Positions 15,301 through 64,000 of a stretch of 64,000 bases of DNA are shown here, one piece after another. The notes beneath the pieces are model-generated. The model had not been told where the DNA came from and made no database searches. It saw only the letters and a list, made by a program, of their open reading frames with translations. A program made the translations under genes and the position numbers. Origin of the DNA: Candidatus Enterousia sp. (GTDB lineage Bacteria; Pseudomonadota; Alphaproteobacteria; Rs-D84). Each line of letters begins with the position of its first letter. The first letter of the stretch is position 1. The stretch spans positions 21,749 to 85,748 of the forward strand of contig JAZQCG010000007.1 of assembly GCA_045546155.1 (NCBI GenBank), read 5' to 3'.

Positions 15301-15327
15301 GCCCCGTTTTTCACGGGGCTTTTTTTA
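15301..15327 (+). terminator. intrinsic terminator closing the polysaccharide operon
   Basis: GCCCCGT-TTTTC-ACGGGGC followed by T7. Confidence 0.8.
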
Positions 15328-15957
15328 TTGGGCGCCATTTGCATAGACAAAACGCAATATACTGGGGGTATTATTGTATGTGATTTGTACGGTGTCACCT
15401 GCCTGGGCCGGGGCAAAGACATAGCCGTTTATCCATCCGCTAGTACTGTAAAAGTGCGCGGTTGTTCCCAATCCTGTCACAGTATTGCGTATGGCCAAGT
15501 GTCCCCCAGGGGTCAGTCGTCTGACCATAACAAAATATCCATCTGCAGGTGCGGTATATTCTGCCTCTGTTGCCTCAATAGTCAGGTCGATATACCTGTC
15601 GGATGGCATTGCTATATTGGCAATTTGTGTATGGGTTGGTATTTCTATTTGTTTCGCAACTGCGGTGCCACCAATCGTTTCACCATCATGAACGCGAATT
15701 GTATTGGTGTCGGTGTCCATTGTGATTTCGCCGGACAGTCCCACATATTCATCGTTGTCTGCTGTGTCGCCTCGCTTAATAAGCAATTTTCGATTGTTTT
15801 GGGTTTTGTTCAGAATTTCATCCAAACTCATGTCGCACAAACCCATACATATTTCATTCAGTACATCGCGCCGTTCGGCTGGGGTTAATAATGTTTCATC
15901 AGCATCCAGTATACGCAAAACAGCTGTGCATATAATTTGCTTTTCTTGTTCGTTCAT
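15325..15957 (-). CDS. phage tail-fibre-like protein (Mtd_N/tail-fibre N-terminal motif)
   Basis: ATG at 15957 after an AGGAAG RBS. KRGDTADNDEYVGLSGEITMDTDTNTIRVHDGETIGG matches the RGT..GE...DTD....GDG.T.GG motif of phage tail fibres and the major tropism determinant N-domain. Confidence 0.55.
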   Translation of the reverse strand: MNEQEKQIICTAVLRILDADETLLTPAERRDVLNEICMGLCDMSLDEILNKTQNNRKLLIKRGDTADNDEYVGLSGEITMDTDTNTIRVHDGETIGGTAVAKQIEIPTHTQIANIAMPSDRYIDLTIEATEAEYTAPADGYFVMVRRLTPGGHLAIRNTVTGLGTTAHFYSTSGWINGYVFAPAQAGDTVQITYNNTPSILRFVYANGAQ

Positions 15958-15981
15958 TTTTATCTTCCTTTGGTGTTTTGT

Positions 15982-16076
15982 AAAAAAATCCGCCAAGCGG
16001 CGGCAAAAATAAAAAAAATACCCCATCATGAGGCCCTTGCGCGAAATATTATATCACAAAATACAAAAAATGTCAA
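15982..16076 (-). promoter_or_regulatory. consensus sigma70-type promoter followed by two tandem intrinsic terminators in the leader
   Basis: Minus strand: TTGACA (16071-16076), 17-nt spacer, TGA-TATAAT (16048-16053). Then a weak hairpin plus T8 (16011-16036) and CCGCC-GCTT-GGCGG plus T7 (15982-16003), then the RBS. Confidence 0.6.
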
Positions 16077-16130
16077 TATGTAATATTGTGTATTGCAAAA
16101 TATCTTATCTACGATACCATAGGCTATGAT

Positions 16131-16823
16131 ATGAATTACGTTAATGCACATTGTCATCTGTGTTCGGGCGAACTGCCACATGAAGTGGCGGTGGCGATTA
16201 CAAATTCAACGCGCGTATCTGATTGGCCGAACGTTGTGCAATTATCGGGGCAGGGCGGTGTTTATGGCGCAATTGGTGTGCATCCGTGGCACGTTGTGGA
16301 CGTTCCCGATGATTGGGCGGAAAAAATGCGCGAATTGTTGGTTGCAAACCCAAATTTAATGGTTGGGGAAATTGGACTGGATAAAAATTATCCAGATATG
16401 CCGACCCAGCTGGATATTTTTCGCACGCAACTAGAAATGGCTCGCGACCTGGGGCGGGTTGCGCATATTCACTGTGTGGGCGCGTGGGATAAATTATTGA
16501 TGGTCTTGGGTGTTGCTATGCCACCGGCGATTGTGCTGCATGGCGCGGCCATGTCGCCCGAAATGATGCGTGCGCTATCAAGGTATAATACATATTTTTC
16601 TTTTGGGCGGGCGGTCTGCAATCCGGCGCACATGCGCGCCCGTGGGGCATTGCGTGCTGCGCCCAAAAACCGAATATTGTCGGAATCTGATTCTGATGTC
16701 CCGACGGATGTCATCGGTGTTGTGCAAACAATGTCTGAAATTCTGAACCGCCCCCTTGCAGAACTTCAAAATACAATTTACAATAACGCTATGGATTTAT
16801 TAAAACATGGACAGATTACATAG
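16131..16823 (+). CDS. TatD-family metal-dependent hydrolase
   Basis: NAHCHL, GEIGLD, HIHC, VLHG and ESDSD motifs. The internal ATG at 16131 is preferred over the TTG at 16086. Confidence 0.8.
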   Translation: MNYVNAHCHLCSGELPHEVAVAITNSTRVSDWPNVVQLSGQGGVYGAIGVHPWHVVDVPDDWAEKMRELLVANPNLMVGEIGLDKNYPDMPTQLDIFRTQLEMARDLGRVAHIHCVGAWDKLLMVLGVAMPPAIVLHGAAMSPEMMRALSRYNTYFSFGRAVCNPAHMRARGALRAAPKNRILSESDSDVPTDVIGVVQTMSEILNRPLAELQNTIYNNAMDLLKHGQIT

Positions 16824-17931: not shown

Positions 17932-18016
<85 letters not shown>

Positions 18017-20529: not shown

Positions 20530-23500
20530 ATGGCTGAGGTTTTATTGTCGGAACGTTTAAATCAAGTTATTGATAGTTTGCACAACGCGCCAGATGAACA
20601 GGCACGTGTCGCTGCGTTTGATCAGGCGAACGAAATAATGCAAGGGTTCGTTTCTGGTGAACTGGAATTAGATCCAGGTGCGCTGGATACATTTGGTGAA
20701 TTTTTGGAAAATTTTGCCGGGATTACAGATGAAGTTGGTAACCAAACTTTGTCGGAATTGGGAACAAGGGCTTTGGCAAAATATGAAGCGCTTATCAATA
20801 ATCGCGAAGGCGAACATGGAAATGAAAGCCCCGAAGTCCAGATGGCCCAGAACAGAATCTATTCTTTGAATTCTGATGCAAACCAGATTGTGTTTGATCG
20901 CGTTTCATTTGTTACGCTGCAAAGTATGGGCCTGATTGATGCGAATATTAATCCAAATGATATGCGTGCCGATCAAATTTCCAACGCGATTGATGCGGTA
21001 AATTTAACCGATGAACAAAAGATTGAGTATGCATCGCGTTTCGTTGATGCGGTTATTGCGGATACGGCGTTGTTTGAAACTGTGCCGCCAAAAATATTAG
21101 CTGATGCTTATACTGCTACCCGCCGGGCATTGTTGTCCGCCACGGACGATGCGACCAAGCAGGCAAATCAAAGACGCTTTAATACATTGGCGTCACGTAT
21201 TGATTTCTTGATTGAAAATTTCAGTACCCAGCTTAATTATTGGTATGTTGATCCATCAAATTTGATGAGTTTGCGTGATGGCTATCAAAAGATGTTTGAT
21301 GTTCGTCAGCCTGATTTGCAGGATGCGCCAAATCAAAACGACAGAACCCGCGAATATAACAGACGCATCAATGGTATGATTGATAGTGGTCGTGCATCCT
21401 TGTTGGCTGCGATACATGAATATGAAGAATTGTATCATTTAACACAAATTAACCCAGAAAATGCCGAAGAACTAAAACAGCGTTGGATTGAATTGAAATC
21501 ACGTCTTGGGGAAATCGAAATTACCCCCGAAACAATGGCTGTTGCGGCAAAATATCATTTCTTGGACGAAGCGGGCAATCCGATACCACAGTTTTTGGAT
21601 GAAAATAATCAGCCGTCCTTGGAATTCACAGAAGGGTGCAAACTTGACCCCACGGGTCGCCTTGCCCAGGTTATAAATCTGTCGCGCAATGACGTTGTTA
21701 TGGAAAATGTTGCCGATTTGGAACATAGCGTTGCAGATATGGAACTGGACAAAATGCTGGACGAAGAAGTTCCATGGACGTTTTCTGAAATCAGTATCCC
21801 AGACCAAGTTGTCCAGGGCATTGTCCAAGACCCTAATAAAATGCGCGACGAAGCCGCGGTTCAAGAATTTTGGGATGGTATAAGAACTGATGGCGGCAGC
21901 ATATCTGATACAGGATACCAAGCGGCCTTGGATGCGCACGTAAATCATGCAATCGGATTTGCGCATGCGTTGGGTGAACGTGTTGGCACTGACCAAGATG
22001 TCGTTTATATGCCTGTTGAAGCGGTCGAAGAAATTGATAGATTAGCAACCACCCGTACCGAGGTCGAAGGGGCTGAAAATCGCAAACAAAAGATAGGCTT
22101 CTTTAAGCGCATGGCCAAGAATTTTGGTATGACATCGGTGGTTTCTGCGGGATTGACCTTTCTGGGTAAAGCCACTGGTGTTGCCTATATCGGTGCTGCG
22201 GTTGGTACGACAATTGGTGTCGGCAATATGATATACCAAGGGCTAAAGTGGCGCAAAGAACAAAAGAAAGCCGGCAAACCCCATGGAATCAAAGATTTCT
22301 TGTCTGATAAACGCAATTGGGGGCCGGCGGTTACCACCGGACTTGGAATTGCGGCGACAATCAGTATGGCAACCGGTAACCCAGAACTGGCAATGGGATT
22401 TGGCTTGGGGGCAATGACGGTTGGAACTGGAACAAGTGTCGCAATGACTTACAAAGATGCTGTGGCTGCGGGATATTCGCGTGGCCAGGCCCTTGCTGGT
22501 GCGATTGGTGTTGGTGCATCGGGTATATTGGGGGCGGCGTTCGGAAACACTGTAATGAACGGTATTGTTAATTATGTCAATAATAATACGGATTCGACCC
22601 TGTTCAAGCATCCTGAAACCGTTGAAACAACCCGAACAGAATATGAAACGCATACAGAACGTGTTTACGAAGATGGTGTAATTGAGCGTCACGAAAATAT
22701 GATGCTTAAAAACAACTGGGAAACACCTCAATCACTGGATGCGCGAATTGATGCATTAATGGATGCGGGGCTGTCGCGTGATGACTCGGTCCGGTATTTG
22801 GTCGCGTTCCATGATGCTACCGATCATAACTTGGGGCCGGGTTATTTTGATTCAATCGGCATGTCTGACAGTGGCCTGGCTGCATTACGTAATTCAATTA
22901 ATGGTACAGAAGTAAATCTGACCCCGGAAAGTATCGCGGCGTTCGAACATTTTAATCCGCATATTTCTGCCCAGAACCAGGTCGGATATATCCCAGGGGC
23001 CCCAGTCGACTATACATTGCCGCCTAATGCGGCATATGATGCCAACGGGGTTCTGGTGCATGGAAATGAATTATATACAACATACGCAAATCATGATGCG
23101 CCAATTTTCCATGATGTAACGTATCAAACGCCAATAACGATAACGGATACTGCGACCATATTTACCCCAAATGAATTAGCGTTCCCAGCGGGGATTGGTA
23201 CATTTGGTATATACGAGCCACGCGTTGTTCCGGCCGGCTATATACGCAGATTACGCGAACGCGCCGGCGCATTGGCGGATCGCATCACAGAAGTTCCAGA
23301 ACCAACCCCAGATCCAGTTCCAGATCCAGAACCCGATCCAGTTCCAGATCCAGAGCCCGATCCAGTTCCAGATCCAGAGCCTGATCCAGTTCCAGACCCA
23401 GAACCCGATCCAGTTCCGCCTGTGCCTGACCCAGGACCAGATGGGCCTGTTAATCCGCCAAAACCGCCAAGACCACAACCAGACAGCGACTTGATGGTTG

Positions 23501-24156
23501 ATATTAAATTAAATCAAAAGCCGCATCAGGCCAATGCTAATAACAACGTAGCGGTCAAGGTTGACGGGAAAATAGAAGAGGTCAAGGTATTTTCATCCGT
23601 TGATGGTAATACTATGAAGGTTACCATGATTGTACCGTATTCTATGGACATGGATAATGGCTACTATCAACCTGTTTACAAGACGTTCAGTGGTGATTTA
23701 AGACAGGTTACAGTCAAATCGCGTGCCACGGATGTCGGGATGCGTATAGATATGGTGTTCGATGGTGTGTCCATGCATGACAAGGGCCGTCACAAAATAT
23801 ACTTTAGGCACGTTCCCGAAGAAGGTCGTGAAGAGCATATCACGACACTGACGAAAAAGACACGCTTTAATCGCGCTAATGTCCTTGACCGCAATGCAGT
23901 GGAAGAGCCGAAGCCTGACAAACCGTCCAAAAAAGACGCGTTTAATCAGGGTGCTGCGACCCTAGAAGACATGCCACCGGCTGAATATGCACGCCTTAAA
24001 GAACAGCGGGCGAAAAAACCGGAAAATATTGCCGCGTGGGCAAACGCACGATCCGCGATTGAGGCATTAAATGCACAAACAGACCTGACCGAGCAGGAAA
24101 AAGCTGAACGTGCGGCACAAATCCTGGCGGCGGCACAACGCGCTGTAAATGGCTAG
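20530..24156 (+). CDS. 1208-aa membrane protein of unknown function with Gly-rich TM block and PDPE repeat
   Basis: Extended -10 (TGGTATAAT) upstream. About aa 530-690 are Gly/Ala-rich hydrophobic helices, and about aa 920-985 are (PDPEPDPV)n plus a Pro-rich stretch. I recognise no other domain. Confidence 0.6.
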   Translation: MAEVLLSERLNQVIDSLHNAPDEQARVAAFDQANEIMQGFVSGELELDPGALDTFGEFLENFAGITDEVGNQTLSELGTRALAKYEALINNREGEHGNESPEVQMAQNRIYSLNSDANQIVFDRVSFVTLQSMGLIDANINPNDMRADQISNAIDAVNLTDEQKIEYASRFVDAVIADTALFETVPPKILADAYTATRRALLSATDDATKQANQRRFNTLASRIDFLIENFSTQLNYWYVDPSNLMSLRDGYQKMFDVRQPDLQDAPNQNDRTREYNRRINGMIDSGRASLLAAIHEYEELYHLTQINPENAEELKQRWIELKSRLGEIEITPETMAVAAKYHFLDEAGNPIPQFLDENNQPSLEFTEGCKLDPTGRLAQVINLSRNDVVMENVADLEHSVADMELDKMLDEEVPWTFSEISIPDQVVQGIVQDPNKMRDEAAVQEFWDGIRTDGGSISDTGYQAALDAHVNHAIGFAHALGERVGTDQDVVYMPVEAVEEIDRLATTRTEVEGAENRKQKIGFFKRMAKNFGMTSVVSAGLTFLGKATGVAYIGAAVGTTIGVGNMIYQGLKWRKEQKKAGKPHGIKDFLSDKRNWGPAVTTGLGIAATISMATGNPELAMGFGLGAMTVGTGTSVAMTYKDAVAAGYSRGQALAGAIGVGASGILGAAFGNTVMNGIVNYVNNNTDSTLFKHPETVETTRTEYETHTERVYEDGVIERHENMMLKNNWETPQSLDARIDALMDAGLSRDDSVRYLVAFHDATDHNLGPGYFDSIGMSDSGLAALRNSINGTEVNLTPESIAAFEHFNPHISAQNQVGYIPGAPVDYTLPPNAAYDANGVLVHGNELYTTYANHDAPIFHDVTYQTPITITDTATIFTPNELAFPAGIGTFGIYEPRVVPAGYIRRLRERAGALADRITEVPEPTPDPVPDPEPDPVPDPEPDPVPDPEPDPVPDPEPDPVPPVPDPGPDGPVNPPKPPRPQPDSDLMVDIKLNQKPHQANANNNVAVKVDGKIEEVKVFSSVDGNTMKVTMIVPYSMDMDNGYYQPVYKTFSGDLRQVTVKSRATDVGMRIDMVFDGVSMHDKGRHKIYFRHVPEEGREEHITTLTKKTRFNRANVLDRNAVEEPKPDKPSKKDAFNQGAATLEDMPPAEYARLKEQRAKKPENIAAWANARSAIEALNAQTDLTEQEKAERAAQILAAAQRAVNG
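23311..23420 (+). repeat. about 4.5 copies of a 24-bp in-frame tandem repeat (PDPEPDPV)
   Basis: gatccagttccagatccaga(a/g)cc(c/t) repeated head to tail inside the 1208-aa ORF. Confidence 0.9.
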
Positions 24157-45356: not shown

Positions 45357-45415
45357 ACATAACCCTTTTGCTAGTATTTTACATGTACAATCAGGTCGTT
45401 TCCAGTAATTATCAC

Positions 45416-45751: not shown

Positions 45752-45773
45752 GCCAAGCCTTATTTCTTTATGA

Positions 45774-46091
45774 TTAAATCATATAATTTATAGCTGCAAC
45801 AACAGCGGATAAAACGATATAACTTATAATCGCAACAATAAAAGCCAATAACAAAATACAACCCCATTTCCACTTATATGGTTTCCATGATAAACACATT
45901 AAAAACAGACCAAGCAAAAAGGTTGCGCTTATAATTGTAATATCAACATAACGCAGGCAGTGATATTCGCACAAACCGTAAAATAAAGTGTCCCATTTTG
46001 AAGAAGCCAACATGTTTGAATCAAAATAGAATACAAACATGATGACAAACGAAACGAATGCATATGTTGCTAATGTTTTTGTATTTTGCAT
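45774..46091 (-). CDS. 3-TM membrane protein, cognate immunity candidate (paralog 4)
   Basis: 105 aa, starting 20 nt after the toxin stop. TM, Cys loop (GLCEYHCLRY), TM, KPYKWKW, TM. Confidence 0.55.
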   Translation of the reverse strand: MQNTKTLATYAFVSFVIMFVFYFDSNMLASSKWDTLFYGLCEYHCLRYVDITIISATFLLGLFLMCLSWKPYKWKWGCILLLAFIVAIISYIVLSAVVAAINYMI

Positions 46092-47246: not shown

Positions 47247-47318
47247 AAAAAACACCCGCGGTTGCGGGCAATAAAAAAAGACGACCTGTGTCGTCCGCTG
47301 AGTGCAAACATTATACCA
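47247..47318 (-). promoter_or_regulatory. extended -10 promoter followed by two tandem intrinsic terminators in the leader
   Basis: Minus strand: TGG-TATAAT (47310-47318), GACGAC-ACAG-GTCGTC plus T7 (47273-47295), CCCGC-AACC-GCGGG plus TGT6 (47247-47268), then the RBS. Confidence 0.6.
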
Positions 47319-47410
47319 TAAAACACGCAAAAAATCAATTCTATATTTCGAACCGCCCGAGCCCCTTGGATTTTTAATAAAAAATCCGTCCAAACGGACG
47401 GAAAATCAGA

Positions 47411-56183: not shown

Positions 56184-56432
56184 ATGACCCACGAAGATGT
56201 ATGGCGGGCAATAGAACGCTTTGCAACCGAACATGGTATGTCTTGTTCTGGTTTGGCAAAGTGCAGTGGTCTGGACCCAACGACTTTTAATAAAAGCAAG
56301 CGTTGGTCCAAAGAAGGACAGCCCAGATGGCCGTCGACAAACAGTATTTCCAAGATTTTGTCGTCGACCGGGGCGCGAATCCAAGACTTTACTAAGTACA
56401 TTGATTCGCCCCAAGATACTGGACGCGACTAA
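56184..56432 (+). CDS. XRE/Cro-CI-type helix-turn-helix regulator (82 aa)
   Basis: AAGGAGAG RBS. MSCSGLAKCSGLDPTTFNKSKRWSKEGQPRWPSTNSISKIL resembles the N-domains of alphaproteobacterial phage-repressor-like proteins. Confidence 0.65.
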   Translation: MTHEDVWRAIERFATEHGMSCSGLAKCSGLDPTTFNKSKRWSKEGQPRWPSTNSISKILSSTGARIQDFTKYIDSPQDTGRD

Positions 56433-56531
56433 GCACATTTTTTATGCACGGTTTCGACACCCCAAAAACCATACGATTTGTCGTGTGGTTTTTTATTGGA
56501 CAATCCACAATGTTTTAGGTATTCTGGACGT

Positions 56532-56951
56532 ATGTTATCGGGAATTCGTATTTTCTCATCCGATCCAATTTGGCGGCATGTTTTAAGTGAATTAAATGCC
56601 ACCGTGCTGGACGCGCCAACGGTAACAGATTCTGATTTTGCAGATTTGGATATTACTGGGCCAATCCATCCAATGGAATTAAAGGCACGAATATTGTCTG
56701 CAACCGATAATTCCCGTATATTAAACCAGATTTTTAGCGCGCCAACATCATTGCCATATATCCAGGGAAAATTAGTAATAGCGCTTTATAAAAGCGGTGG
56801 CATGTCCGCAGCCGATTTGAAGCACGCACTGGGCTATGCCGCAGATACATCGACACACGCGGTTGATACCGCGATTTATCAGCTGCGTCGTAAATTTGGT
56901 CGTGATTTTATAACAATTAATAATGGGGTGTATAAGCTTGGCCGGATATAA
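56532..56951 (+). CDS. small OmpR/PhoB-type winged-helix DNA-binding protein without an obvious receiver domain
   Basis: C-terminus LVIALYKSGGMSAADLKHALGY...THAVDTAIYQLRRKFGRDFITINNGVYKLG matches the Trans_reg_C pattern. Confidence 0.55.
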   Translation: MLSGIRIFSSDPIWRHVLSELNATVLDAPTVTDSDFADLDITGPIHPMELKARILSATDNSRILNQIFSAPTSLPYIQGKLVIALYKSGGMSAADLKHALGYAADTSTHAVDTAIYQLRRKFGRDFITINNGVYKLGRI

Positions 56952-57642: not shown

Positions 57643-57761
57643 TTGACTTTTAATTAAAAATGTGATATACTTTACCACATCAAAGGCAGATATTTTATCC
57701 ACAACATTTGTTGGGGATTTTTTTTGTCTAAATTTTACCGCACATTTTTGTGCGGTTTTTT
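57643..57761 (+). promoter_or_regulatory. late-promoter-like element: near-consensus promoter followed by two tandem intrinsic terminators
   Basis: TTGACT (57643-48), 17 nt, TGA-TATACT (57666-71). Then ATCCACAAC-ATTT-GTTGGGGAT plus T8 (57697-57725) and ACCGCACA-TTTT-TGTGCGGT plus T6 (57737-57761), then the RBS of the hydrolase gene. Confidence 0.65.
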
Positions 57762-57796
57762 ATTTATCAAAAATCAAAGCGGGGGGATTTTTAGAA

Positions 57797-58207
57797 ATGA
57801 ATCTAAGACTGATAAAAAATCCAGACGAAACGAAAAAGTTATCATATCAAATTGCGCGTGTTGTTTATGCTGAAACATCTGCATCTTCACTGTCCGCGGT
57901 CGAAGCACTGGTATCAATGATTAATAATGCATCGCGTGCCACCGGGAAAAGTATCGCACAGATAATATCTGATACCGATATGTTTGAATCATTAAATAAA
58001 ACTTCTGTTCGTCACGGTATGTTGTCTGTCCCCCCGACCAGTCGTGGTTTTCAAATGTGTCTGCGTGTTGTTGGGCGCATGCTTTCAGGCGGTTTGTCGG
58101 ATATGTGTCGTGGGGCGACCCGTTTTCATCATGGTGATACGATACCAGATTGGGCGCGCGCACGCGGGTATATATTGGACGTTGATGAATTACTATTTTA
58201 TTTGTGA
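57797..58207 (+). CDS. cell-wall hydrolase (SleB/Hydrolase_2-like), endolysin candidate
   Basis: The internal ATG at 57797 follows a G-rich RBS. IARVVYAETSAS...EALVSMINN follows the ARviyaEa...A.a.vi.NR pattern. Confidence 0.5.
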   Translation: MNLRLIKNPDETKKLSYQIARVVYAETSASSLSAVEALVSMINNASRATGKSIAQIISDTDMFESLNKTSVRHGMLSVPPTSRGFQMCLRVVGRMLSGGLSDMCRGATRFHHGDTIPDWARARGYILDVDELLFYL

Positions 58208-58221: not shown

Positions 58222-58410
58222 ATGAACAAGGTTTTTAAGGGCGGATTCTTGAACGGATACCGCACCTATATTACGGCATCGGTTGGCATATTATCTGCAA
58301 TTGCGGCATACCTGGTTGGCGACACAGATATATTTATAACACTGCAAAGTATTTTTACATTGGCGGGAATTTTCTTTCTGCGTAAATCAAATGAACCAAA
58401 GGAAAAATAA
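58222..58410 (+). CDS. two-TM small membrane protein, holin candidate
   Basis: 62 aa with two hydrophobic helices and a charged C-terminus, lying next to the hydrolase. Confidence 0.45.
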   Translation: MNKVFKGGFLNGYRTYITASVGILSAIAAYLVGDTDIFITLQSIFTLAGIFFLRKSNEPKEK

Positions 58411-58411
58411 A

Positions 58412-59068
58412 ATGGATAAGATTCCAGAAAAATTTTTAAACCAAGATGGAACACTAAATGCAGAGGCATTGATTAAATCGTATTCAGAATTGGAAAAAAA
58501 GATTGGCACAATGATAACTGTTCCAACAGATGACAGTGATGAAAATGTGCGTGCACGATTTAATCGTGCAATTGGTGTACCCGAATCATCAGATGAATAT
58601 CCAACAAATGAATTGTTTGATGATGAAAATTTAAAAAATAAATTTCATGAAATCGGATTAACAATGAGCCAGGTTGAAAAAATTTATTCAATCGCAAATG
58701 AATTTCTTGCACCGGTAATCTCTGATTTATATGCAACGCAAAATGAAAAAAATGCATTTGCAGAATTAAAAAACTTTTTTGGTGGCACTGAAAAAATGTC
58801 AGAAGCTCTTCGCGCAATTGATGCGTTTGGAAAACAGTTTTTACCCGCCGATGCATTTGATGAGTTGTGTTCCACACCCCAGGGAATCCAAGGCATATAT
58901 CGAATGATGCAATCCATAGAACCAAATGTCGAAACAGAAAAAAATGAAATAAAAAATTTAACAGATTCTGATTTGCGACGTATGATGCGTGATCCAAAAT
59001 ATTGGCGCGATGGTGATGTTGAATACATCCGTAAAATAGAAAATGGATTTAAAAAATTATATTCATAA
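58412..59068 (+). CDS. phage capsid scaffolding protein candidate
   Basis: MDKIPEKFLNQDGTLNAEALIKSYSELEKKIG is a common N-terminus of podovirus scaffold proteins. The protein is helical and acidic and sits upstream of the capsid gene. Confidence 0.5.
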   Translation: MDKIPEKFLNQDGTLNAEALIKSYSELEKKIGTMITVPTDDSDENVRARFNRAIGVPESSDEYPTNELFDDENLKNKFHEIGLTMSQVEKIYSIANEFLAPVISDLYATQNEKNAFAELKNFFGGTEKMSEALRAIDAFGKQFLPADAFDELCSTPQGIQGIYRMMQSIEPNVETEKNEIKNLTDSDLRRMMRDPKYWRDGDVEYIRKIENGFKKLYS

Positions 59069-59176: not shown

Positions 59177-59647
59177 ATGGTCTTTGGCCTGTTCAAAAAA
59201 TCTGCTAAGAAAGCAGTTGTAAAACCAGCCGCAAAACCGGTTGCAAAAAAGCCAGCTGCTAAACCAGCTGCAAAAAAAGTTGCTGCAAAAAAGCCAGCTG
59301 CGAAACCAGTTGCAAAAAAAGCACCTGCGAAAAAAGTAGCTGCAAAACCAGCTGCAAAAAAAGCACCTGCGAAAAAAGTAGCCGCTAAACCAGCTGCAAA
59401 AAAAGTAGCAGTTAAAAAAGTAGCCGCAAAACCAGTTGCAAAAAAAGCACCTGCGAAAAAAGTAGCTGCGAAACCAGTTGCAAAAAAAGCACCTGCGAAA
59501 AAAGTAGCTGCAAAACCAGCTGCAAAAAAAGCACCTGCGAAAAAAGTAGCTGCAAAACCAGCTGCAAAAAAAGTAGCTGTTAAAAAAGTAGCTGCAAAAC
59601 CATGCGCAAAAAAAGCATGTGCAAAAAAATGTGCAAAAAAGAAATAA
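59177..59647 (+). CDS. Lys/Ala/Pro-repeat histone H1-like basic protein with Cys-containing C-terminus
   Basis: 156 aa of (AAKPxAKKxPAKKV)n encoded by 42-nt tandem repeats, ending PCAKKACAKKCAKKK. Has its own RBS and downstream terminators. Confidence 0.6.
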   Translation: MVFGLFKKSAKKAVVKPAAKPVAKKPAAKPAAKKVAAKKPAAKPVAKKAPAKKVAAKPAAKKAPAKKVAAKPAAKKVAVKKVAAKPVAKKAPAKKVAAKPVAKKAPAKKVAAKPAAKKAPAKKVAAKPAAKKVAVKKVAAKPCAKKACAKKCAKKK

Positions 59648-59670
59648 TATAATTTCTTGATTCTATTTAC

Positions 59671-59745
59671 CCGGACGTTTGTTCGGGTTTTTTTTAAAAA
59701 ATTTCAGTCAGATGAATTATTAGTCTGACTGAATTTTTTATTGCG
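59671..59745 (+). terminator. two consecutive intrinsic terminators
   Basis: CCCGGAC-GTTT-GTTCGGG plus T8, then TTCAGTCAGA-9 nt-TCTGACTGAA flanked by A6/T6 (bidirectional). Confidence 0.75.
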
Positions 59746-59862
59746 GACAAGTCTTGCCACCCCGCATTTATTTTATGTTCACGGCGCAATATTGCATAAC
59801 CGCTGCATAAAATTATCGCGCAAATCGCGCTTTTTTCATTTAACCAAACAAAGGAAATAAAT

Positions 59863-60684
59863 ATGTCCGTTTCAATTGACCAGGTCTTCGTAAAACAATT
59901 CGAAGCCGATGTTCATTTGGCCTATCAACAGATGGGCACAAAACTGCGTTCAACTGTTCGCAGCAAATCAGGTGTTGTTGGTGCATCAACGACTTTCCAG
60001 AAGGTTGGTCGTGGCACAGCCAGCACAAAATCACGTCATGGTATTGTACCTGTGATGAATTTGAATCATGAACCTGTCGAATGTATGTTAACTGATTACT
60101 ATGCTGGTGATTGGGTTGATGCATTGGATGAATTAAAAGTCAATATTGACGAACGTCGTGTTGTTGCGTCTGCGGGTGCATACGCATTGGGGCGCAAAAC
60201 AGACGAATTAATTATTGATGCAATGAACACGTCTACATTATCGGTTGGTGATTATACAACAGGCTTGACCAAAGATTTGATTTTATCTGCTGTCGAAGTT
60301 TTAAATACCAACGATGTTCCCGATGATGGCCGTCGCTTTGCGGTGATTGGCGTACACCAGTGGAACGAACTGTTGGCGATGGATGAATTTGTATCCGCCG
60401 ATTATGTTGGTGATGCAAATCCATTGGTAAATGGTTTCGAAGCAAAAAAATGGTTGGGTATCACATGGGTGTTGCACAACGCATTGCCTGTATCTGAATC
60501 AAATCGTGATTGCTTTATCTATCATGCGTCCAGCATTGGTCATGCATGTGGTCAAGAAGTTAAAACAGATATTTCTTGGCATGGTGAACGTGCTGCGCAC
60601 TTTATTAGCAACAGCATGTCCCAAGGCGCAGTCTTGATTGATAATGATGGTATCGTACGTGTCAAATGTTCTGATGCACAGTAA
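59863..60684 (+). CDS. phage major capsid protein candidate
   Basis: 273 aa with RBS AAAGGAAA. Its N-terminus FVKQFEADVHLAYQQMGTKLRSTVR and its position between the scaffold and tail tubular genes support the call. Confidence 0.6.
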   Translation: MSVSIDQVFVKQFEADVHLAYQQMGTKLRSTVRSKSGVVGASTTFQKVGRGTASTKSRHGIVPVMNLNHEPVECMLTDYYAGDWVDALDELKVNIDERRVVASAGAYALGRKTDELIIDAMNTSTLSVGDYTTGLTKDLILSAVEVLNTNDVPDDGRRFAVIGVHQWNELLAMDEFVSADYVGDANPLVNGFEAKKWLGITWVLHNALPVSESNRDCFIYHASSIGHACGQEVKTDISWHGERAAHFISNSMSQGAVLIDNDGIVRVKCSDAQ

Positions 60685-60713: not shown

Positions 60714-60947
60714 ATGGCATTTCAAAATAAAAATCTGTCGGTTATTGCATATGCAAATGGTTTTACATTGTGGCACTATGCATCTGCAACAGAAACCATT
60801 GCGACGATTTCTGCAACTGGATATTTCAACGATGTAAAAACATTGATGAATATTGGCGATGTTGTAATTATCAACGCATCTGATAACACTGCGATTAAGA
60901 AAATAAACATCACAGCCAGCAACGTCACAACCGGTGCATTGGCATAA
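60714..60947 (+). CDS. hypothetical phage protein (77 aa)
   Basis: Follows the capsid gene. No recognisable motif. Confidence 0.4.
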   Translation: MAFQNKNLSVIAYANGFTLWHYASATETIATISATGYFNDVKTLMNIGDVVIINASDNTAIKKINITASNVTTGALA

Positions 60948-61019
60948 TTATTTATTATTGTCGAACGGTGGCGCAATTTGCGTCACCGATATTTTTATTA
61001 AAAAACAGTGGGGGCACTT

Positions 61020-61538
61020 ATGCTTACAAAAATAGATTTATGTTCAATGGCATTATTAAAATTTGGGGAAAAGCCTATTCAGTCGCTTAGTGATGATACT
61101 GCGGCCGCGCAATTGGCGCGAACATTGTTTGAACCGGTCACAGATGCCTTGATTGCATCACATCCATGGCGTTTTGCAACACGCCAGTTGCGTTTAACGC
61201 GTAACTCAGATGGGGACTTTTTAATACCATCTGATGTCCTGCGTGTATTGAAATCATGTGGTGATATTATTGGTAATAAAATTGTTGCGCCAACTGACAC
61301 TATAACAATAACAGCCTGTGTACGTGTTGGGGTCGAAACTTTCCCAGGATATTTTGCATCATTGTTGGCAACAAAACTGGCGATGGAATTTTGTATCCCA
61401 TTGTCGGGCGATCAAACCGTGTTCAGAATGCTGGTTGCGCTTTATGAATCTGAATTACAATCTGCAAAATTTATCGACAGTACCACTGCCGCTGGTGCAA
61501 AAATAGACAATTTTTCTTTGATTGATGCGCGATTTTAA
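61020..61538 (+). CDS. podovirus tail tubular protein A / adaptor-like candidate
   Basis: IDLCSMALLKFGEKPIQSLSDDTAAA...SHPWRFA matches the in.aL..iGe.pi.sl.d pattern, and the gene is in the gp11-like position. Confidence 0.5.
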   Translation: MLTKIDLCSMALLKFGEKPIQSLSDDTAAAQLARTLFEPVTDALIASHPWRFATRQLRLTRNSDGDFLIPSDVLRVLKSCGDIIGNKIVAPTDTITITACVRVGVETFPGYFASLLATKLAMEFCIPLSGDQTVFRMLVALYESELQSAKFIDSTTAAGAKIDNFSLIDARF

Positions 61539-61549
61539 AGGGGGACAAA

Positions 61550-63265
61550 ATGGCAAATTTTATTAAAACACAAAACTCATTTGCCCATGGCGCTGTTGCA
61601 CCTGAATTTTTTGCACACGATGATATTAATGGCGTGTCCAGACTTGAAAATATGGATGTTTTGCCGGGTGGTGGATTAACGCGCCGTCGCGGTCTGGTGC
61701 ATGTTGCAGCACTTTCAACTAATGCGCGTTTAGTTCCATTTTCTGTATCTGAAACGGAAAATTATTTACTGGCGATAACGCCGGGGCATGTAATTGTTTA
61801 TCTGGGAACAACGGTAAAGGCTGATTTATTCGCGCCATGGACTTCTGATGATTTGTCGCGTCTGCAATACGCCCAGCGTTTTGATACGATTATATTTGTG
61901 CATCCTGATTATCAGCCCCAGATTTTACAGAAAACAAAAAATGGTTTCGAGCTTGTCGATTTTATCTTTGCGCGTAATGACACAGATATGTCGATGAATA
62001 TCCCGTTTATGCGATTTGAAGACAGCAATGATATAAAAATATCTGTTACAACCAGTGATCGTGGCAATAACTATGCTAAGTTTACCACAAATACAGATTT
62101 CTGGTCGCCGGAATATGTCGGAACGCGCTTTTTATTATCGGATAAACAGTGGGTAATTGACGAATTCATTAATTCGACCCAGGTCATCGCATACATCAAT
62201 GGCACATACAGTGTGCCAAGCAACCCTGTATCAGATTGGTATGAAGCCGCATTTAGCAATGTGCGTGGCTGGCCATGCAGTATCACATTTCACCAAGACA
62301 GACTTGTCTTTGGTGGTGCGCGTTCATATCCAGCTGGGGTTTGGATGTCATGCGTTGGGCAACATAAAAACTTTAATGTGGGAACAGGTCTAGATGACGA
62401 AGCGATTTTCATAACCTTGCTTTCCCAGCAACGCCAACAAATCTGTACCGTGGTCAGTGGCGATAATCTGCAAATTTTGACATCTGATGGCGAATGGGCG
62501 ATTTCCAGTAAACCTTTGACCCCGTCGATGGTCGATATTAAACAACATACATCTGTTGGTTGTTGCGCAACACGATATTTACCACCGCAAAAGATAGAAG
62601 GTGCAACCGTATTCGTGTCTAAAACAATGCGTGATATTCGCGAACTGTCACTGGACGATTTGGGGCAAAATTATAACGCAACAGATTTGTGTGCGTTTGC
62701 AAAACATTTGATGACGGGGCCAATTGATATGGCGTATAACGATGCAACAAAACAATTGTTTGTTGTTCAATCAGACGGCAATATGGCGGTTTTAAATCAA
62801 AACAGCGCATTGGGAATATCCGCCTGGGCAGAATACAAAACATATGGTCAATTTATGTCTGTGGCGGTTGTTGATGGCATGACCTATGTCGTAACAAAGC
62901 GCGACACAGTATATAATATCGAATGTTTTTCAGATTCCGCGATGACAGATGCAGATTTATATGATTTCGCATTTTGTGCAGAATCTCTGCCGTTTCGGGT
63001 GTCGCATCATAATGTGTCACAGCTGCGAATACGAAAATTGTCTGTTCGTCTTTTAAATACCAAATCAGTCTTTGTTAATGGGGTGCGTGCGCCATTGCCT
63101 AATGATATTTATTCAGACAATCATCCCGGCTTTTCAGGGGATATTTCTGTGAATTTATTAGGCCAGATGAAAACATGCCTAGCACCGTATTGGACAATAC
63201 ATGGCAACGAACCACAACCAATCACAATTTTATCGGTATCTGTTTCCGGCGGATACAGTATTTAA
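61550..63265 (+). CDS. podovirus tail tubular protein B-like candidate
   Basis: 571 aa. The N-terminus QNSFAHGAVAPEFFAHDDINGVSRLENMDVLPGGGLTRRRG and the gene order support the call. Confidence 0.5.
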   Translation: MANFIKTQNSFAHGAVAPEFFAHDDINGVSRLENMDVLPGGGLTRRRGLVHVAALSTNARLVPFSVSETENYLLAITPGHVIVYLGTTVKADLFAPWTSDDLSRLQYAQRFDTIIFVHPDYQPQILQKTKNGFELVDFIFARNDTDMSMNIPFMRFEDSNDIKISVTTSDRGNNYAKFTTNTDFWSPEYVGTRFLLSDKQWVIDEFINSTQVIAYINGTYSVPSNPVSDWYEAAFSNVRGWPCSITFHQDRLVFGGARSYPAGVWMSCVGQHKNFNVGTGLDDEAIFITLLSQQRQQICTVVSGDNLQILTSDGEWAISSKPLTPSMVDIKQHTSVGCCATRYLPPQKIEGATVFVSKTMRDIRELSLDDLGQNYNATDLCAFAKHLMTGPIDMAYNDATKQLFVVQSDGNMAVLNQNSALGISAWAEYKTYGQFMSVAVVDGMTYVVTKRDTVYNIECFSDSAMTDADLYDFAFCAESLPFRVSHHNVSQLRIRKLSVRLLNTKSVFVNGVRAPLPNDIYSDNHPGFSGDISVNLLGQMKTCLAPYWTIHGNEPQPITILSVSVSGGYSI

Positions 63266-63290
63266 TTAATTAAACACAAAGGAATTAACT

Positions 63291-63638
63291 ATGGGACAAC
63301 TTGTATCAGATGTTAGTGAAATTTTGGACTACCAAGATGAAAAAAAACAGGCGAAAAATGCTCGTCAAGAAATTCTAAAGCAAATGGCCGCAGACGAGGC
63401 CGAAAAAACAAACCTGGTCAAAAAAGCATTGGCGACCCAGCGCGCTAAATACGGGGCATCGGGGGTGTCTGCGCGTGGCTTAAGCCAGGGCGCAGTTCTG
63501 GCGCGGCTAAAATCAGAAACTGAAAAACCATACACAGAAAAACGCAATGCCAACTTAAAAAAACTAAAATCAGCCAAGGCAAAAAAACCGAATTTGTTAA
63601 AAACAATTCTTAGCCGTTTTGATGATTTGGTTGGGTAA
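63291..63638 (+). CDS. hypothetical basic coiled-coil phage protein (115 aa)
   Basis: Lies between the tubular B-like gene and the tail-fibre gene. Confidence 0.4.
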   Translation: MGQLVSDVSEILDYQDEKKQAKNARQEILKQMAADEAEKTNLVKKALATQRAKYGASGVSARGLSQGAVLARLKSETEKPYTEKRNANLKKLKSAKAKKPNLLKTILSRFDDLVG

Positions 63639-63654
63639 AGAATAGGGGGATATT

Positions 63655-64000
63655 ATGCATAAAATATCTTATATCTCAGATGGTATAACAACCGAATTTG
63701 AATTTGCATTTCCATTTTTCCAGGCAGCGGATATTCATGTCGCGATAAATGAAAGTGTTTTAGCCCCAGATAACTATTCAGTTGTTGAAAATGCAACGTT
63801 TGATGGTGGCCGCATTGTTTTTAATGAAGCACCGGTTCAAGATTCGCGCATTGATATTTATCGAATAGTTGCACTGTCGCGCGTTATAGATTATCAGCCA
63901 ACCGCAAAAATAGACCCAGAACACCTGAATTCAGATTTTAATTTTTTGATTGAAGCCCTCAAAGACCTGCATGCGCCTGATGTTGACATCGAAGCGTGGC
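63655..64000 (+). CDS. tail fibre protein, T7 gp17 N-terminal-domain-like (3' end outside window)
   Basis: Not in the ORF track because no stop lies in the window. YISDGITTEFEFAFPFF...IHVAIN...DNYSV...IDIYRIV...IDYQP...HLNSDFNFLIEALKDL parallels the T7 tail-fibre N-domain. Confidence 0.6.
   Translation, partial: MHKISYISDGITTEFEFAFPFFQAADIHVAINESVLAPDNYSVVENATFDGGRIVFNEAPVQDSRIDIYRIVALSRVIDYQPTAKIDPEHLNSDFNFLIEALKDLHAPDVDIEAW

Follow-up and report, generated by a model that had tools for sequence, protein, structure and literature searches.

Three unrelated loci of Candidatus Enterousia (Alphaproteobacteria, order Rs-D84), a gut bacterium with a small genome, were found to share one anatomy within the window, which is the whole 64,000-nt stretch of DNA analysed here. 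In each locus, a near-consensus extended −10 sigma-70 promoter is followed by two hairpin and U-run terminators, a ribosome-binding site (RBS) and an ATG. We lean towards the reading that termination at these leaders is the default state and is relieved by a processive antiterminator, with the dispersed loci firing together. The arrangement points to an undescribed, tightly switched system of phage-derived particle and toxin genes.

Anatomy of the leaders and of the virion module

The first-pass annotation had described promoter and double-terminator leaders before a tail-fibre-like gene, a MuF toxin gene and a lysis/virion module, as one control architecture. Sequence reading and consensus scans established that the leaders are real and that the architecture is common to the three loci, designated L1, L2 and L3. 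Domain searches agreed with the gene identities that had been proposed.

L1, Mtd_N fibre-tip locus
16048–16076, minus strand: promoter, TTGACA (16076–16071), 17 nt, TGtgaTATAAT (−10 at 16053–16048)
15982–16034, minus strand: tandem terminators, hairpin 1 at 16034–16020 (then A and T8; −6.2 kcal/mol), hairpin 2 at 16003–15990 (then A and T7; −9.6 kcal/mol)
15325–15957, minus strand: Mtd_N-domain gene, 210 aa, fibre-tip or receptor-binding-like (Pfam Mtd_N, E=6.8e-9; PHROG tail protein)

L2, MuF toxin locus
47310–47338, minus strand: promoter, TTGATT (47338–47333), 17 nt, TGgTATAAT (−10 at 47315–47310)
47247–47296, minus strand: tandem terminators, hairpin 1 at 47296–47279 (then T7; −9.6 kcal/mol), hairpin 2 at 47270–47253 (then T6; −11.1 kcal/mol)
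46112–47233, minus strand: gene with a MuF (SPP1 gp7-like) N-terminal domain and a Tlde1/YkuD L,D-transpeptidase-type toxin domain (domain searches)
44483–46091, minus strand: small ORFs encoding multi-pass membrane proteins (putative immunity), with an orphan fragment of a toxin C-terminus at ~44840–44960 (sequence reading)

L3, lysis/virion leader
57643–57671, plus strand: promoter, TTGACT (57643–57648), 17 nt, TGtgaTATACT (−10 at 57666–57671)
57672–57696, plus strand: initial transcribed box, conserved in orthologues as CATAAACAGCACAgATT (alignment A1, columns 6–27)
57697–57761, plus strand: tandem terminators, hairpin 1 at 57697–57718 (one A.G mismatch, then T8; −7.4 kcal/mol), hairpin 2 at 57737–57756 (then T6; −13.3 kcal/mol)

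The L1 promoter matches both hexamers at 12/12 positions and carries the additional TG. The start codons lie at 15957 (L1, RBS AAGGAAG), 47233 (L2) and 57797 (L3, RBS GGGGGGA). The folding energies of the leader hairpins ranged from −6.2 to −13.3 kcal/mol, and in this genome hairpin 1 is weak in both L1 and L3. The pattern TTG-N17-TGnTAnnnT has six matches in the window, and terminators follow only those of L1, L2 and L3. Among 43 promoter-like sites with at least 10/12 matches in the window, a genuine hairpin and T-run before a start codon was likewise seen only at these three loci. The arrangement therefore exceeds chance expectation in the window. Besides the promoter, no sequence element common to all three leader types was detected as a possible loading site, and a −10-like pause element was not evident in the leaders.

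The Mtd_N gene is monocistronic and ends at a bidirectional terminator (15301–15319). The MuF domain match reached 26.4 bits, which is under the Pfam gathering score of 29.6. The membrane ORFs downstream of the toxin gene gave no matches in family searches; their putative role as immunity proteins is suggested by the layout of polymorphic-toxin loci.

L3 precedes the lysis genes and the virion module, whose features are listed below; the endolysin, scaffold, capsid and tail tubular genes were identified by domain searches.

57797–58207, plus strand: endolysin-like gene
58222–58410, plus strand: holin-like gene
58391–59068, plus strand: T7-type scaffold gene
59177–59647, plus strand: gene for a Lys/Ala-rich histone-H1-like protein
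59669–59688, plus strand: T1, hairpin and U8 (−12.1 kcal/mol)
59703–59733, plus strand: T2, hairpin and U6 (−14.9 kcal/mol)
59818–59830, plus strand: T3, weak 4-bp hairpin and U6 (−6.4 kcal/mol)
59863–60684, plus strand: major capsid gene
60714–60947, plus strand: gene for a 77-aa protein
61008–61538, plus strand: tail tubular A gene
61550–63265, plus strand: tail tubular B gene
63291–63638, plus strand: gene for a 115-aa protein

The three extra terminators previously placed before the capsid gene are all present, but the third had been positioned ~15 nt too far right. A conserved structured block (~59742–59815) separates T2 from T3. T1, whose stem covaries, occurs in nearly all species, and the sequence of T2 is kept as CAGTCAGAT..GTCTGACTG. 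Searches of the T1–T3 region across 67 species yielded no sigma-70-like promoter. The virion element extends beyond the window end, and its continuation was read in two related loci (L001 and L246). It comprises a fibre N-terminal adaptor and the ATPase half of the terminase, then p218, XRE335 and dnaB on the opposite strand, and, past dnaB, the terminase nuclease half, a T7-type portal and p85. The module of the nuclease half and the portal lacks a tandem-terminator leader.

Conservation and the domesticated state of the element

The promoter is among the best-conserved parts of every leader (~2 bits at TTGA, TG and TAnnnT) and always lies upstream of the hairpins. The L1-type promoter is conserved 5' of Mtd_N genes at ~55 loci, and the promoter and terminators precede these genes in 59/63 cases, with covariation in hairpin 1; at least two Mtd_N paralogues per genome carry such a leader. 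The L2-type promoter is conserved in 27 MuF loci, 26 of which have two hairpins and retain the stems GGACGAC/GTCGTC and GCCCGC/GCGGGTG. The L3 promoter is kept as CTTGACTTTT..AAAAtaTGaTA..AT across ~65 species.

The lysis leader provided the most detailed view of the RNA structure. RNAalifold, applied to 51 species, predicted exactly the two L3 helices, with compensatory changes at 13/14 pairs. In these helices 88.3% of cells were paired, compared with 28–47% for slid partners, and 0/500 shuffles reached 88.3%. Both hairpins also keep a T-run of ~5–9 across species. The compensatory substitutions and the retained T-runs therefore indicate that selection acts on a terminator, an RNA hairpin with its U-tract, rather than on a DNA site bound by protein.

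The leader architecture was observed before the orthologous lysis/virion operon in ~65 species and also at a small number of further lysozyme or toxin genes. It had been foreseen that an equal frequency before housekeeping genes would undo the proposal; no housekeeping gene carried the architecture in the window or in ~3.7 Mb of related sequence. From sequence, this supports a leader architecture confined to phage-derived genes and to genes for lysis and toxins.

The virion module adjoins birA in fixed synteny in every species-level locus examined, and the genes from the endolysin to the histone-H1-like protein have orthologues in identical order in all full loci. Identity across species is 85–99% for the capsid and 80–100% for the portal, compared with 52–90% for the neighbouring birA, and the dnaB operon splits the terminase gene in 74/74 loci. 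Neither an integrase nor an RNA or DNA polymerase of phage type was noticed in the cluster. These sequence comparisons strongly support a vertically inherited, domesticated element; the earlier claim of domestication thus gains from both the synteny at birA and the capsid being more conserved than birA.

An ordinary active temperate phage accompanied by unrelated prophage debris, with normal phage late-promoter features and no host-level regulon, is a very improbable explanation. Among isolated phages, the nearest relative, Pelagibacter phage Hodr (capsid 45.6% identical), is a genuine podophage, and IMG/VR lists related contigs as viral. However, the listed contigs correspond to these bacterial loci, cut off at the Lys/Ala-repeat gene, and the invariant position and gene order, the capsid and portal identities relative to birA, the split terminase and the gene content of the cluster all argue against an active phage.

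Proposed control and alternative explanations

In the proposed mechanism, each leader promoter would be a constitutive, near-consensus sigma-70 promoter with two tandem intrinsic terminators within ~10–30 nt. If the promoters are active and the hairpins terminate efficiently, RNA polymerase would by default release short leader RNAs (~35–90 nt), and the endolysin, holin, virion, Mtd_N fibre-tip, MuF-type and other toxin genes would be off. Expression would then require read-through. The most likely route would be processive antitermination: a factor would modify RNA polymerase at the promoter or shortly past it, so that the polymerase ignores both leader terminators as well as T1–T3. The dispersed loci would fire together in a subpopulation, which would lyse and release a podovirus-like particle with fibres and possibly MuF toxins. 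The capsid, which needs the highest expression, sits behind T1–T3 without its own promoter, and its expression is hard to reconcile unless termination is processively suppressed. The leaders have two serial terminators and are too short for an alternative antiterminator fold, which speaks for a processive rather than a riboswitch-like mechanism. Precedents in Alphaproteobacteria (BrrG of BaGTA and GafZ of CcGTA) are counted, by analogy, in favour of antitermination.

The antiterminator on which the earlier proposal depended was not found by profile, sequence and structure searches covering ~7% of one genome and the homologous loci. None of the window and locus proteins tested against Pfam, PHROGs, NCBIfam and PDB sequences resembled Q, Q21, AlpA or a NusG paralogue. 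AlphaFold and Foldseek were applied to the two best-placed uncharacterised proteins; the p218 model had no PDB match, and the p157 model matched a generic winged helix only. The antiterminator step, and with it the existence of a dedicated factor, is therefore inferred. Also weighing against the proposed mechanism are the lack of a shared loading element in the three leader types, the leaderless module of the terminase nuclease half and portal, and the weak hairpin 1 of L1 and of L3. Two genes near the lysis cluster are candidate regulators only:

56184–56432, plus strand: hth82, 82-aa Cro/CI-type HTH protein (weak Pfam match, HTH_26)
56478–56951, plus strand: p157, 139/157-aa winged-helix protein (weak Pfam match)

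The order hth82, p157, birA and lysis cluster is kept in 66 loci, and hth82 is 78–99% identical in these syntenic loci.

The main rival is factor-independent attenuation, which we regard as possible though rather doubtful. Leaky tandem terminators behind a strong promoter would keep dangerous genes at a noisy, very low basal level, with any regulation coming through global shifts, for example in NTP pools or NusA/NusG levels, and with no dedicated antiterminator. The outcome of the protein searches, the lack of a loading element shared by the three leader types and the weakness of certain first hairpins are consistent with it. The genomes are also very small (~0.8–1 Mb; PMC12306168), so regulators may be scarce. 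Against this, three further hairpins and the lack of its own promoter would hold capsid transcription well below that of the endolysin and holin, the wrong stoichiometry for particle assembly. A weak promoter would be a cheaper way to low expression, and the near-consensus promoters kept at >150 loci argue that high initiation matters.

It is improbable that the leader transcripts are themselves the product, as antisense or antitoxin-like sRNAs of ~35–90 nt with the downstream genes expressed from other starts. An sRNA gene typically consists of a promoter, a short transcribed segment and a terminator, as the leaders do, and the lysis leader has a conserved 20-nt single-stranded box 5' of hairpin 1. 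However, the 20–60 nt gap between the terminators and the start codon contains an RBS and no second promoter, conserved unpaired sequence is nearly absent from the Mtd_N and MuF leaders, nothing common to the three leader types would define one target, and no Rfam family matched the leaders or the pre-capsid hairpin region. Just as hard to sustain as an active phage is the idea that the hairpins are insulators or mRNA 5'-stabilisers, protecting toxic genes against read-through from neighbours, with incidental promoter matches and the real promoters elsewhere or dependent on another sigma factor. L3 does lie downstream of the co-directional birA, and L2 downstream of a tRNA gene. Nevertheless, two separate terminators (47586–47566 and 47402–47385) already stand between the tRNA and the L2 promoter, and a promoter is always present 5' of the hairpins, among the best-conserved leader parts. 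The gene upstream of L1 is tatD-like, starts at ~16132 on the plus strand and is divergent, so the L1 hairpins have no incoming transcript to end; as their U-runs lie on the gene's strand alone, the terminators would act on the minus strand only and cannot be upstream transcript ends.

Comparison with known systems

In lambdoid late operons, the pR' promoter is followed by the terminator tR', which is read through by Q-lambda; phage 21 uses Q21. The Enterousia loci resemble them in the strong constitutive sigma-70 promoter with an intrinsic terminator close behind, the lysis and virion genes downstream, the further terminators inside the operon and, as predicted here, a short terminated RNA as the default product. 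Unlike the lambdoid operons, they have two tandem terminators starting ~3–30 nt past the start site, the design is copied at several unlinked loci, and neither a Q gene nor a Q-binding or −10-like pause element was recognised. AlpA is a small DNA-binding protein that loads on RNA polymerase at the promoter and passes a promoter-proximal intrinsic terminator at more than one locus, and this read-through switches on self-lysis genes. In Pseudomonas aeruginosa, it is the Q-like antiterminator of the alpBCDE lysis genes (PMC11150451 and general background). The hth82 protein beside the Enterousia cluster weakly matched HTH_26 and not the AlpA family.

Antitermination is reported to link dispersed GTA loci in BaGTA of Bartonella, where the constitutive promoter PbgtA-K (TTGACA-N17-TATCAT) precedes a leader that attenuates expression and BrrG is the Q21-like antiterminator (bioRxiv 10.1101/2024.11.20.624540). 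Both are domesticated phage elements of Alphaproteobacteria with near-consensus constitutive promoters and attenuating leaders, as predicted for Enterousia. BaGTA encodes its antiterminator at a different locus, tying separate modules together, and has one long leader at a single operon, whereas in Enterousia many loci carry short, doubled leaders. The Enterousia gene module is T7-like, the BaGTA particle is not, and no BrrG-like protein was found among the Enterousia proteins searched. CcGTA of Caulobacter crescentus, activated by GafY/IHF and carried past terminators by GafZ (PMC11150451, PMC9632790), is likewise alphaproteobacterial with internal terminators, bypassed there by a dedicated factor. 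It has accessory loci co-regulated elsewhere in the genome and a cascade topped by the LexA/CI-like repressor RogA. CcGTA is an RcGTA-type siphovirus-like cluster whose terminator, a set of GC-rich 150-bp repeats, lies behind the first gene, in contrast to tandem leader hairpins, and GafZ works at a single promoter, whereas the Enterousia leaders stand at many loci.

MuF polymorphic toxins of temperate phages combine an N-terminal MuF/SPP1-gp7 head-morphogenesis domain with a variable C-terminal toxin (PMC5576092). The Enterousia proteins are alike in their conserved N-terminus (83–94% over residues 1–210), the C-terminus swapped between genomes and the small immunity-like genes that follow. 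Unlike the phage genes, they stand alone at chromosomal loci, away from portal and head genes, each behind a tandem-terminator leader. Hodr (Pelagibacter podophage EXVC031P, OQ414635), the nearest isolated phage, shares the gene order portal, scaffold, capsid, small protein, tube A and tube B; it is a complete 34-kb phage, whereas the Enterousia element is rearranged and occupies a fixed chromosomal position. The earlier statement that no podovirus-type GTA had been described is out of date, as FpGTA of Faecalibacterium prausnitzii (Firmicutes), a gut GTA-like element at two loci, was reported to be podovirus-like; the available portion of that report describes no leader terminators (PMC12946183). 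The domesticated podovirus-like system of Enterousia would be an undescribed one, probably run by a variation on control logic already known from these precedents.

Promoter-terminator leaders in the window and across species

The first-pass annotation had claimed that three phage-derived loci each carry a promoter and two terminators ahead of the coding sequence, and had taken them for a candidate antitermination-controlled regulon. Reading of the sequence bore out this anatomy, as every leader contains a promoter, two hairpins with T-runs, and a start codon. The promoters and five of the six hairpins were also detected independently by a scanning tool.

Leaders L1 to L3 and the genes that follow them
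15325-15957, minus strand: Mtd_N gene, 210 aa; N-terminal domain of the Bordetella phage tropism determinant Mtd (family search)
16076-15958, minus strand: L1; TTGACA, 17 nt, TGtgaTATAAT; AAGGAAG; ATG at 15957
16034-16020 and 16003-15990, minus strand: L1 hairpins; A and then T8 or T7 after each
46112-47233, minus strand: MuF toxin gene; MuF/SPP1-gp7-like head domain fused to a Tlde1/YkuD toxin domain (family search)
47338-47234, minus strand: L2; TTGATT, 17 nt, TGgTATAAT; ATG at 47233
47296-47279 (T7) and 47270-47253 (T6), minus strand: L2 hairpins
57643-57799, plus strand: L3; TTGACT, 17 nt, TGtgaTATACT; GGGGGGA; ATG at 57797
57697-57718 (one mismatch, T8) and 57737-57756 (T6), plus strand: L3 hairpins
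57797 onward, plus strand: lysis/virion module, first part; endolysin-like (lys), holin-like (hol), T7-type scaffold and Lys/Ala-rich H1-like proteins (family searches)
plus strand: lysis/virion module, second part; PF19821 capsid, 77-aa protein, tail tubular A, tail tubular B, 115-aa protein

The folding energies of the six leader hairpins in the window ranged from -6.2 to -13.3 kcal/mol. All six, together with hairpins T1 and T2 ahead of the capsid gene, present a GC-rich stem with a U-run directly after it on the transcribed strand, which is the pattern of an intrinsic terminator. In anatomy, the layout is of the Q type, with a constitutive sigma-70 promoter directly 5' of the terminators and late, lysis or virion genes behind them. 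The promoters are predicted to be active from their consensus matches.

Two further arrangements were observed in the window. A tRNA gene (47669-47597, minus strand), whose sigma-70 promoter (47729-47701) is a perfect match, has two separate terminators 3' of it, at 47586-47566 and 47402-47385, just before the L2 promoter; together with those of L2, this makes four terminators on one strand within ∼340 nt. A perfect TTGACA-17-TATAAT match at 36648-36620 (minus strand) has a strong terminator ∼125 nt further on (36496-36471) and no plausible ORF between; this stretch (36471-36648) may encode a small RNA, or the promoter match may be fortuitous, lying beside the bidirectional terminator of the 34238-36469 gene.

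The lys promoter is kept in the birA-lys spacer of ∼65 species in the form CTTGACTTTT..AAAAtaTGaTA..AT, and the box CATAAACAGCACAgATT conserved directly after its -10 element occurs, among the three leader types, in lys leaders only. The two hairpins, each with its T-run, are kept in the same spacers, with stems that vary between species: CCACAACA/TGTTGTGG, CCACACG/TGTGTGG, CCGTAAC/GTTACGG, CCCATGCA/TGCATGGG, CCGCACA/TGTGCGG and CCACGTG/CACGTGG. Covariation was analysed on a MAFFT alignment of 51 lys leaders, for which RNAalifold returned exactly the two terminator helices, with compensatory changes at 13 of 14 pairs. Paired cells amounted to 88.3%, against 28-47% when the partners were slid by 1-3 columns, and 96 double-change cells were observed against 32 ± 6 in shuffled alignments; none of 500 shuffles reached the observed pairing values. 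As both measures exceed their slid and shuffled controls, selection acts on the RNA hairpin and U-run, that is, on an intrinsic terminator.

The architecture is confined to phage-derived genes in the material covered. The pattern TTG-N17-TGnTAnnnT has six matches in the window, and terminators follow it at the three leaders only; likewise, among 43 promoter-like sites matching at least 10 of 12 positions, a real hairpin and T-run before a start codon was found at those leaders alone. Related loci (2.2 Mb and 1.5 Mb) were searched for the same arrangement. Terminators lay between such a promoter and the start codon in 68/68 lys, 59/63 Mtd_N and 30/31 MuF cases, and at additional toxin and lysozyme genes. 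No promoter-terminator leader was found at a housekeeping gene in these related loci, which were chosen for carrying phage-derived genes and have largely syntenic flanks, so that the housekeeping sample is large but not genome-wide. The matches ahead of ackA were rejected as false, as the hairpin lies inside the coding sequence. An equal frequency at housekeeping genes had been named in the first-pass annotation as the outcome that would speak against a regulon-specific architecture; it was seen neither in the window nor in the related loci.

Dispersed MuF, Mtd_N and other leader-bearing genes

The MuF protein matched Phage_Mu_F at E=1.2e-5, which is below the gathering score, and TIGR01641 at E=6.9e-5, and it gave PHROG head-morphogenesis hits; its Tlde1_dom and YkuD matches were above their cut-offs. 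MuF-type genes were found in 37 loci; their N-terminal 210 residues are 83-94% identical, and the C-terminal toxin is swapped between genomes. The MuF N-terminus, the variable toxin C-terminus and a downstream immunity gene, the last predicted from small membrane ORFs, are the features of a MuF polymorphic toxin. Ahead of these genes, TTGAww-17-TGrTATAAT is present in all 27 loci that contain the gene start, and 26 of the 27 carry the hairpins GGACGAC-loop-GTCGTC T7 and then GCCCGC-loop-GCGGGTG T6. The region 3' of the MuF toxin gene in the window (44483-46091, minus strand) encodes several small multi-pass membrane ORFs and, at ∼44840-44960 (minus strand), an orphan C-terminal toxin fragment accompanied by a small ORF of its own. 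Polymorphic-toxin loci that keep toxin and immunity cassettes in reserve have this layout.

Mtd_N genes were identified in 68 loci, often with at least two copies per genome, and fall into two subfamilies (∼210 aa and ∼188 aa). Nearly all are preceded by CTTGATTTTTT-N5-ATTTrTGrTATAAT. Hairpin 1 begins ∼3 nt past the likely start site, for example GCGTCAYCGG..CCGRTGGCGT and then TTGTTTTTT, and shows compensatory changes at five pairs (17 sequences); a C-rich second hairpin is usually present.

In other genomes, toxin-like genes of 201, 285 and 348-380 aa likewise lie behind the MuF-type leader, and tandem-terminator leaders were found ahead of one GH108-like lysozyme gene and one T4-lysozyme-like gene.

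Extra leader-bearing genes (fetched related locus: position)
L085:6154, L091:2051, L108:3384, L110:646, L115:1771, L256 (minus strand) 762, L277 (minus strand) 4773: mostly MuF-type leader; unrelated genes

The leader seems to move as a cassette together with genes for antibacterial effectors.

The podovirus-type element of Rs-D84 genomes

Enterousia belongs to the order Rs-D84, with genomes of ∼0.75-1.0 Mb (PMC12306168). A capsid search with one genome per species gave 262 matching stretches, from which 80 loci were kept. All 80 are gut MAGs (Candidatus Enterousia, uncultured Alphaproteobacteria or uncultured proteobacterium), at 85-99% amino-acid identity. The order birA, lys, hol, scaffold, capsid, 77-aa gene, tube A, tube B and the 115-aa gene (p115) holds in every locus with enough sequence. 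Across species, identity is 52-90% for birA, 85-99% for the capsid and 80-100% for the portal. The nearest isolated phage is the Pelagibacter podophage Hodr, whose capsid is 45.6% identical; with Hodr proteins as queries, a T7-type portal was located ∼8.5 kb 3' of the capsid gene. Beyond the window the order of the element is identical in 74-80 species loci.

The element past the window end, in order
plus strand: p115; 182-aa protein consisting of the T7 tail fibre N-terminal adaptor domain only; 213-aa terminase ATPase half
opposite strand: 218-aa unknown protein (p218); 335-aa protein with two XRE HTH domains; DnaB
original strand again: terminase nuclease half; portal (PF12236, E=2e-84); 85-aa protein (p85)

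The terminase large-subunit gene is in two pieces (5141-9974 of L246, the locus that continues the cluster past the window end): the ATPase half, of 213 aa, retains Walker A and B and stops just past the GTP motif, and the nuclease half measures ∼270 aa. A 3.4-kb opposite-strand segment carrying the genes for p218, the double-HTH XRE protein and DnaB separates them, and the split is identical in 74 species loci. A search for recombination sites flanking this insertion gave only short repeats at chance level. A programmed frameshift at the T6 run of the nuclease-half start was considered and rejected, as an in-frame ATG ∼25 nt upstream explains the ORF in the loci inspected in detail. The nuclease-half/portal unit lacks the tandem-terminator leader, and only ∼25-50 nt separate its start from that of dnaB.

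Just 5' of birA and the lys promoter lies a pair of regulator-like genes, syntenic in 66 loci: an 82-aa Cro/CI-type HTH protein (56184-56432, plus strand; 78-99% identical in syntenic loci) and a 139/157-aa protein with a C-terminal winged helix (p157; 56478-56951, plus strand). At its N-terminus, the 82-aa protein has a motif that may resemble the one in LexA/CI-like repressors of Alphaproteobacteria, RogA among them. Between the scaffold and capsid genes (59177-59647, plus strand), a 156-aa protein consists almost throughout of AKKPAAKK-type repeats; it is 70% Lys and Ala, has a weak histone H1-like HC2 match, and is present in all species at variable length (73-176 aa), with many assemblies breaking there. 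Elsewhere in the window, 3' of ligA (20530-24156, plus strand), a 1208-aa protein with a Gly/Ala-rich hydrophobic centre and a PDPVPDPE proline-rich repeat matched no Pfam or PHROG family.

The cluster showed no phage polymerase, nor did an integrase come to notice. Because position and order are fixed, conservation is strong, the terminase is split and neither an integrase nor a phage polymerase is recognisable, the element is best regarded as domesticated rather than as an active prophage, and we consider an ordinary active phage highly improbable. Vertical inheritance, fixed position, purifying selection and the lack of a self-replication or integration module, with synteny identical in 60-80 species loci, are traits of gene transfer agents (GTAs) in the broad sense, the particle producers derived from domesticated phages. 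The 59 IMG/VR contigs that match the capsid (L186-L244), nearly all at 77-98% identity, represent the same Enterousia chromosomal locus, and no true phage relatives were found in IMG/VR. Many of these contigs begin exactly at the capsid gene, presumably having been cut at the repeat-rich Lys/Ala gene. It seems that the domesticated element is wrongly entered as phage in virus catalogues.

The additional hairpins annotated earlier ahead of the capsid gene were likewise found, in a spacer of 200-260 nt after the Lys/Ala-rich gene whose layout is conserved in ∼67 species.

The spacer ahead of the capsid gene
59669-59688: T1, directly 3' of the stop codon of the Lys/Ala-rich gene; covarying stem (∼67 species)
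59703-59733: T2, long hairpin with conserved sequence CAGTCAGAT..GTCTGACTG, plus T-run
59742-59815: structured block between T2 and T3, made up of the two stem-loops and the AAAAyACAAAAT block listed next
3' of T2: two stem-loops of the forms nGG-AYAA-[hairpin]-CCn and nnGG-C-GCN-loop-NGC-AYAA-CCnn; conserved internal loops, covarying flanking pairs
between the stem-loops and T3: block AAAAyACAAAAT
59818-59830: T3, weak and variable third hairpin plus T-run; RBS next

No sigma-70-like promoter was found in this spacer, either by the extended -10 pattern (67 species) or by eye in the alignment. A sigma-54 promoter at the GGCGCA..TGCATAACC block was rejected, as it needs a fixed GG-N10-GC and the spacing here is 8-17 nt (66 species), with flanks that covary as a helix. 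The structured block may serve to process or stabilise the RNA, or may itself be an RNA that a factor binds. Rfam searches at gathering and relaxed thresholds returned only three tRNAs and sub-threshold noise, and no family for the leaders or for this block.

Proposed termination control and comparison with known systems

By default, transcripts would end in the leader, and the genes would be expressed only when termination is suppressed. We lean, with slightly better than even confidence, towards a processive antiterminator. The capsid gene lies without a promoter of its own behind three conserved hairpins, yet must be the most highly expressed, which argues for this mechanism; so does the recurrence of one leader design at loci that are not linked but whose products could plausibly form a single particle. 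It is further favoured because alphaproteobacterial GTAs are now known to use it, with BrrG acting in BaGTA (bioRxiv 10.1101/2024.11.20.624540) and GafZ in CcGTA (PMC11150451, PMC9632790). A riboswitch-like mechanism cannot serve, since there are two terminators in series and the leader is too short for an alternative fold. The leaders matched no riboswitch or attenuator family in Rfam, and their consensus fold comprises the two terminator helices only; in Mtd_N leaders, the position of hairpin 1 so close to the likely start site leaves no room for a sensor.

The main rival, factor-independent leaky attenuation, seems to us rather unlikely, and the search for a factor, the weak point of the antiterminator reading, bears on it in its favour. 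Pfam, PHROGs, NCBIfam and PDB-sequence searches of the window and locus proteins gave no match to a Q-, AlpA- or NusG-like antiterminator. With Foldseek, the AlphaFold model of p218 (pLDDT 78) had no PDB match at E<1 and no Q-like fold, and that of p157 (pLDDT 80) matched generic winged-helix regulators only, again with no Q-like fold. Leaky attenuation would also agree with the leader comparison: the three types share a T-rich spacer and TRTG, which are also general strong-promoter features, and the search for a common loading-site motif found nothing beyond such features and no convincing shared -10-like element. The promoterless capsid gene behind its conserved hairpins and the repeated leader design are the points that incline us to processive antitermination instead. 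That the leader RNAs themselves act as sRNAs is improbable in our judgement, and that the hairpins are insulators and the promoters incidental still more so.

Mtd_N proteins are the receptor-binding tips in Bordetella phage BPP-1, and MuF proteins are head-internal proteins. The truncated fibre adaptor of the cluster would need tips, which the Mtd_N proteins would supply. It is conceivable, and we put it forward tentatively, that Rs-D84 genomes of <1 Mb keep a domesticated pelagiphage/T7-like particle for toxin delivery or gene transfer, with one antitermination switch opening many leaders at once. Such a switch would open a ∼14-kb unit running from the lysis genes via capsid and tail, antisense across the dnaB operon, to the portal, and also the dispersed cassettes, as interchangeable Mtd_N receptor-binding tips and head-packaged MuF toxins. 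Speculatively, antiterminated polymerase from the lys promoter would run antisense through the dnaB operon to the nuclease half and portal. Summed over 74 loci, eight strong plus-strand terminators were counted across the dnaB-operon gap and ten from the nuclease half to p85, and a strong terminator lies within 50 nt after p85 in 28/74 loci. Antisense read-through stays only an idea, because the absence of terminators inside coding sequence is the null expectation too.

If true, uncultured gut Alphaproteobacteria with reduced genomes would have a podovirus-type element that is inherited vertically throughout the lineage. The extended -10 promoter with tandem terminators would be a sequence-readable mark of every regulon member, and the parts list of the particle system (virion genes, swappable fibre tips, MuF and other toxins, lysozymes) could be read from metagenomes. 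For existing gut metatranscriptomes and viromes, the predictions would be short RNAs from the leaders, read-through that is bimodal and, in fractions of virus-like particles, capsid protein or Enterousia DNA. It also raises the question of why bacteria shorn of most metabolism retain ∼14 kb of phage genes, better conserved than their own housekeeping genes.

Few GTAs and tailocins are known, and antitermination is only now emerging as their mode of regulation, in Caulobacter and Bartonella. The Enterousia leaders functionally resemble lambda pR'-tR', the BaGTA promoter PbgtA-K and the targets of P. aeruginosa AlpA; we do not claim membership of the Q-type class. In contrast to the HK97-type, siphovirus-like head-tail cluster (g1-g15) of RcGTA-type GTAs, the genes of the Enterousia element are of the T7/podovirus type: Phage_T7_Capsid scaffold, PF19821 capsid, tail tubular A and B, PF12236 portal, T7 fibre N-terminal domain and T7-type terminase nuclease domain. 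From Faecalibacterium, a GTA-like element described as podovirus-like is already reported (PMC12946183). No account of phage-derived elements in Enterousia or Rs-D84 came up in the literature searches. What is new is the use of a known control logic, in varied form, within an apparently undescribed domesticated phage system.
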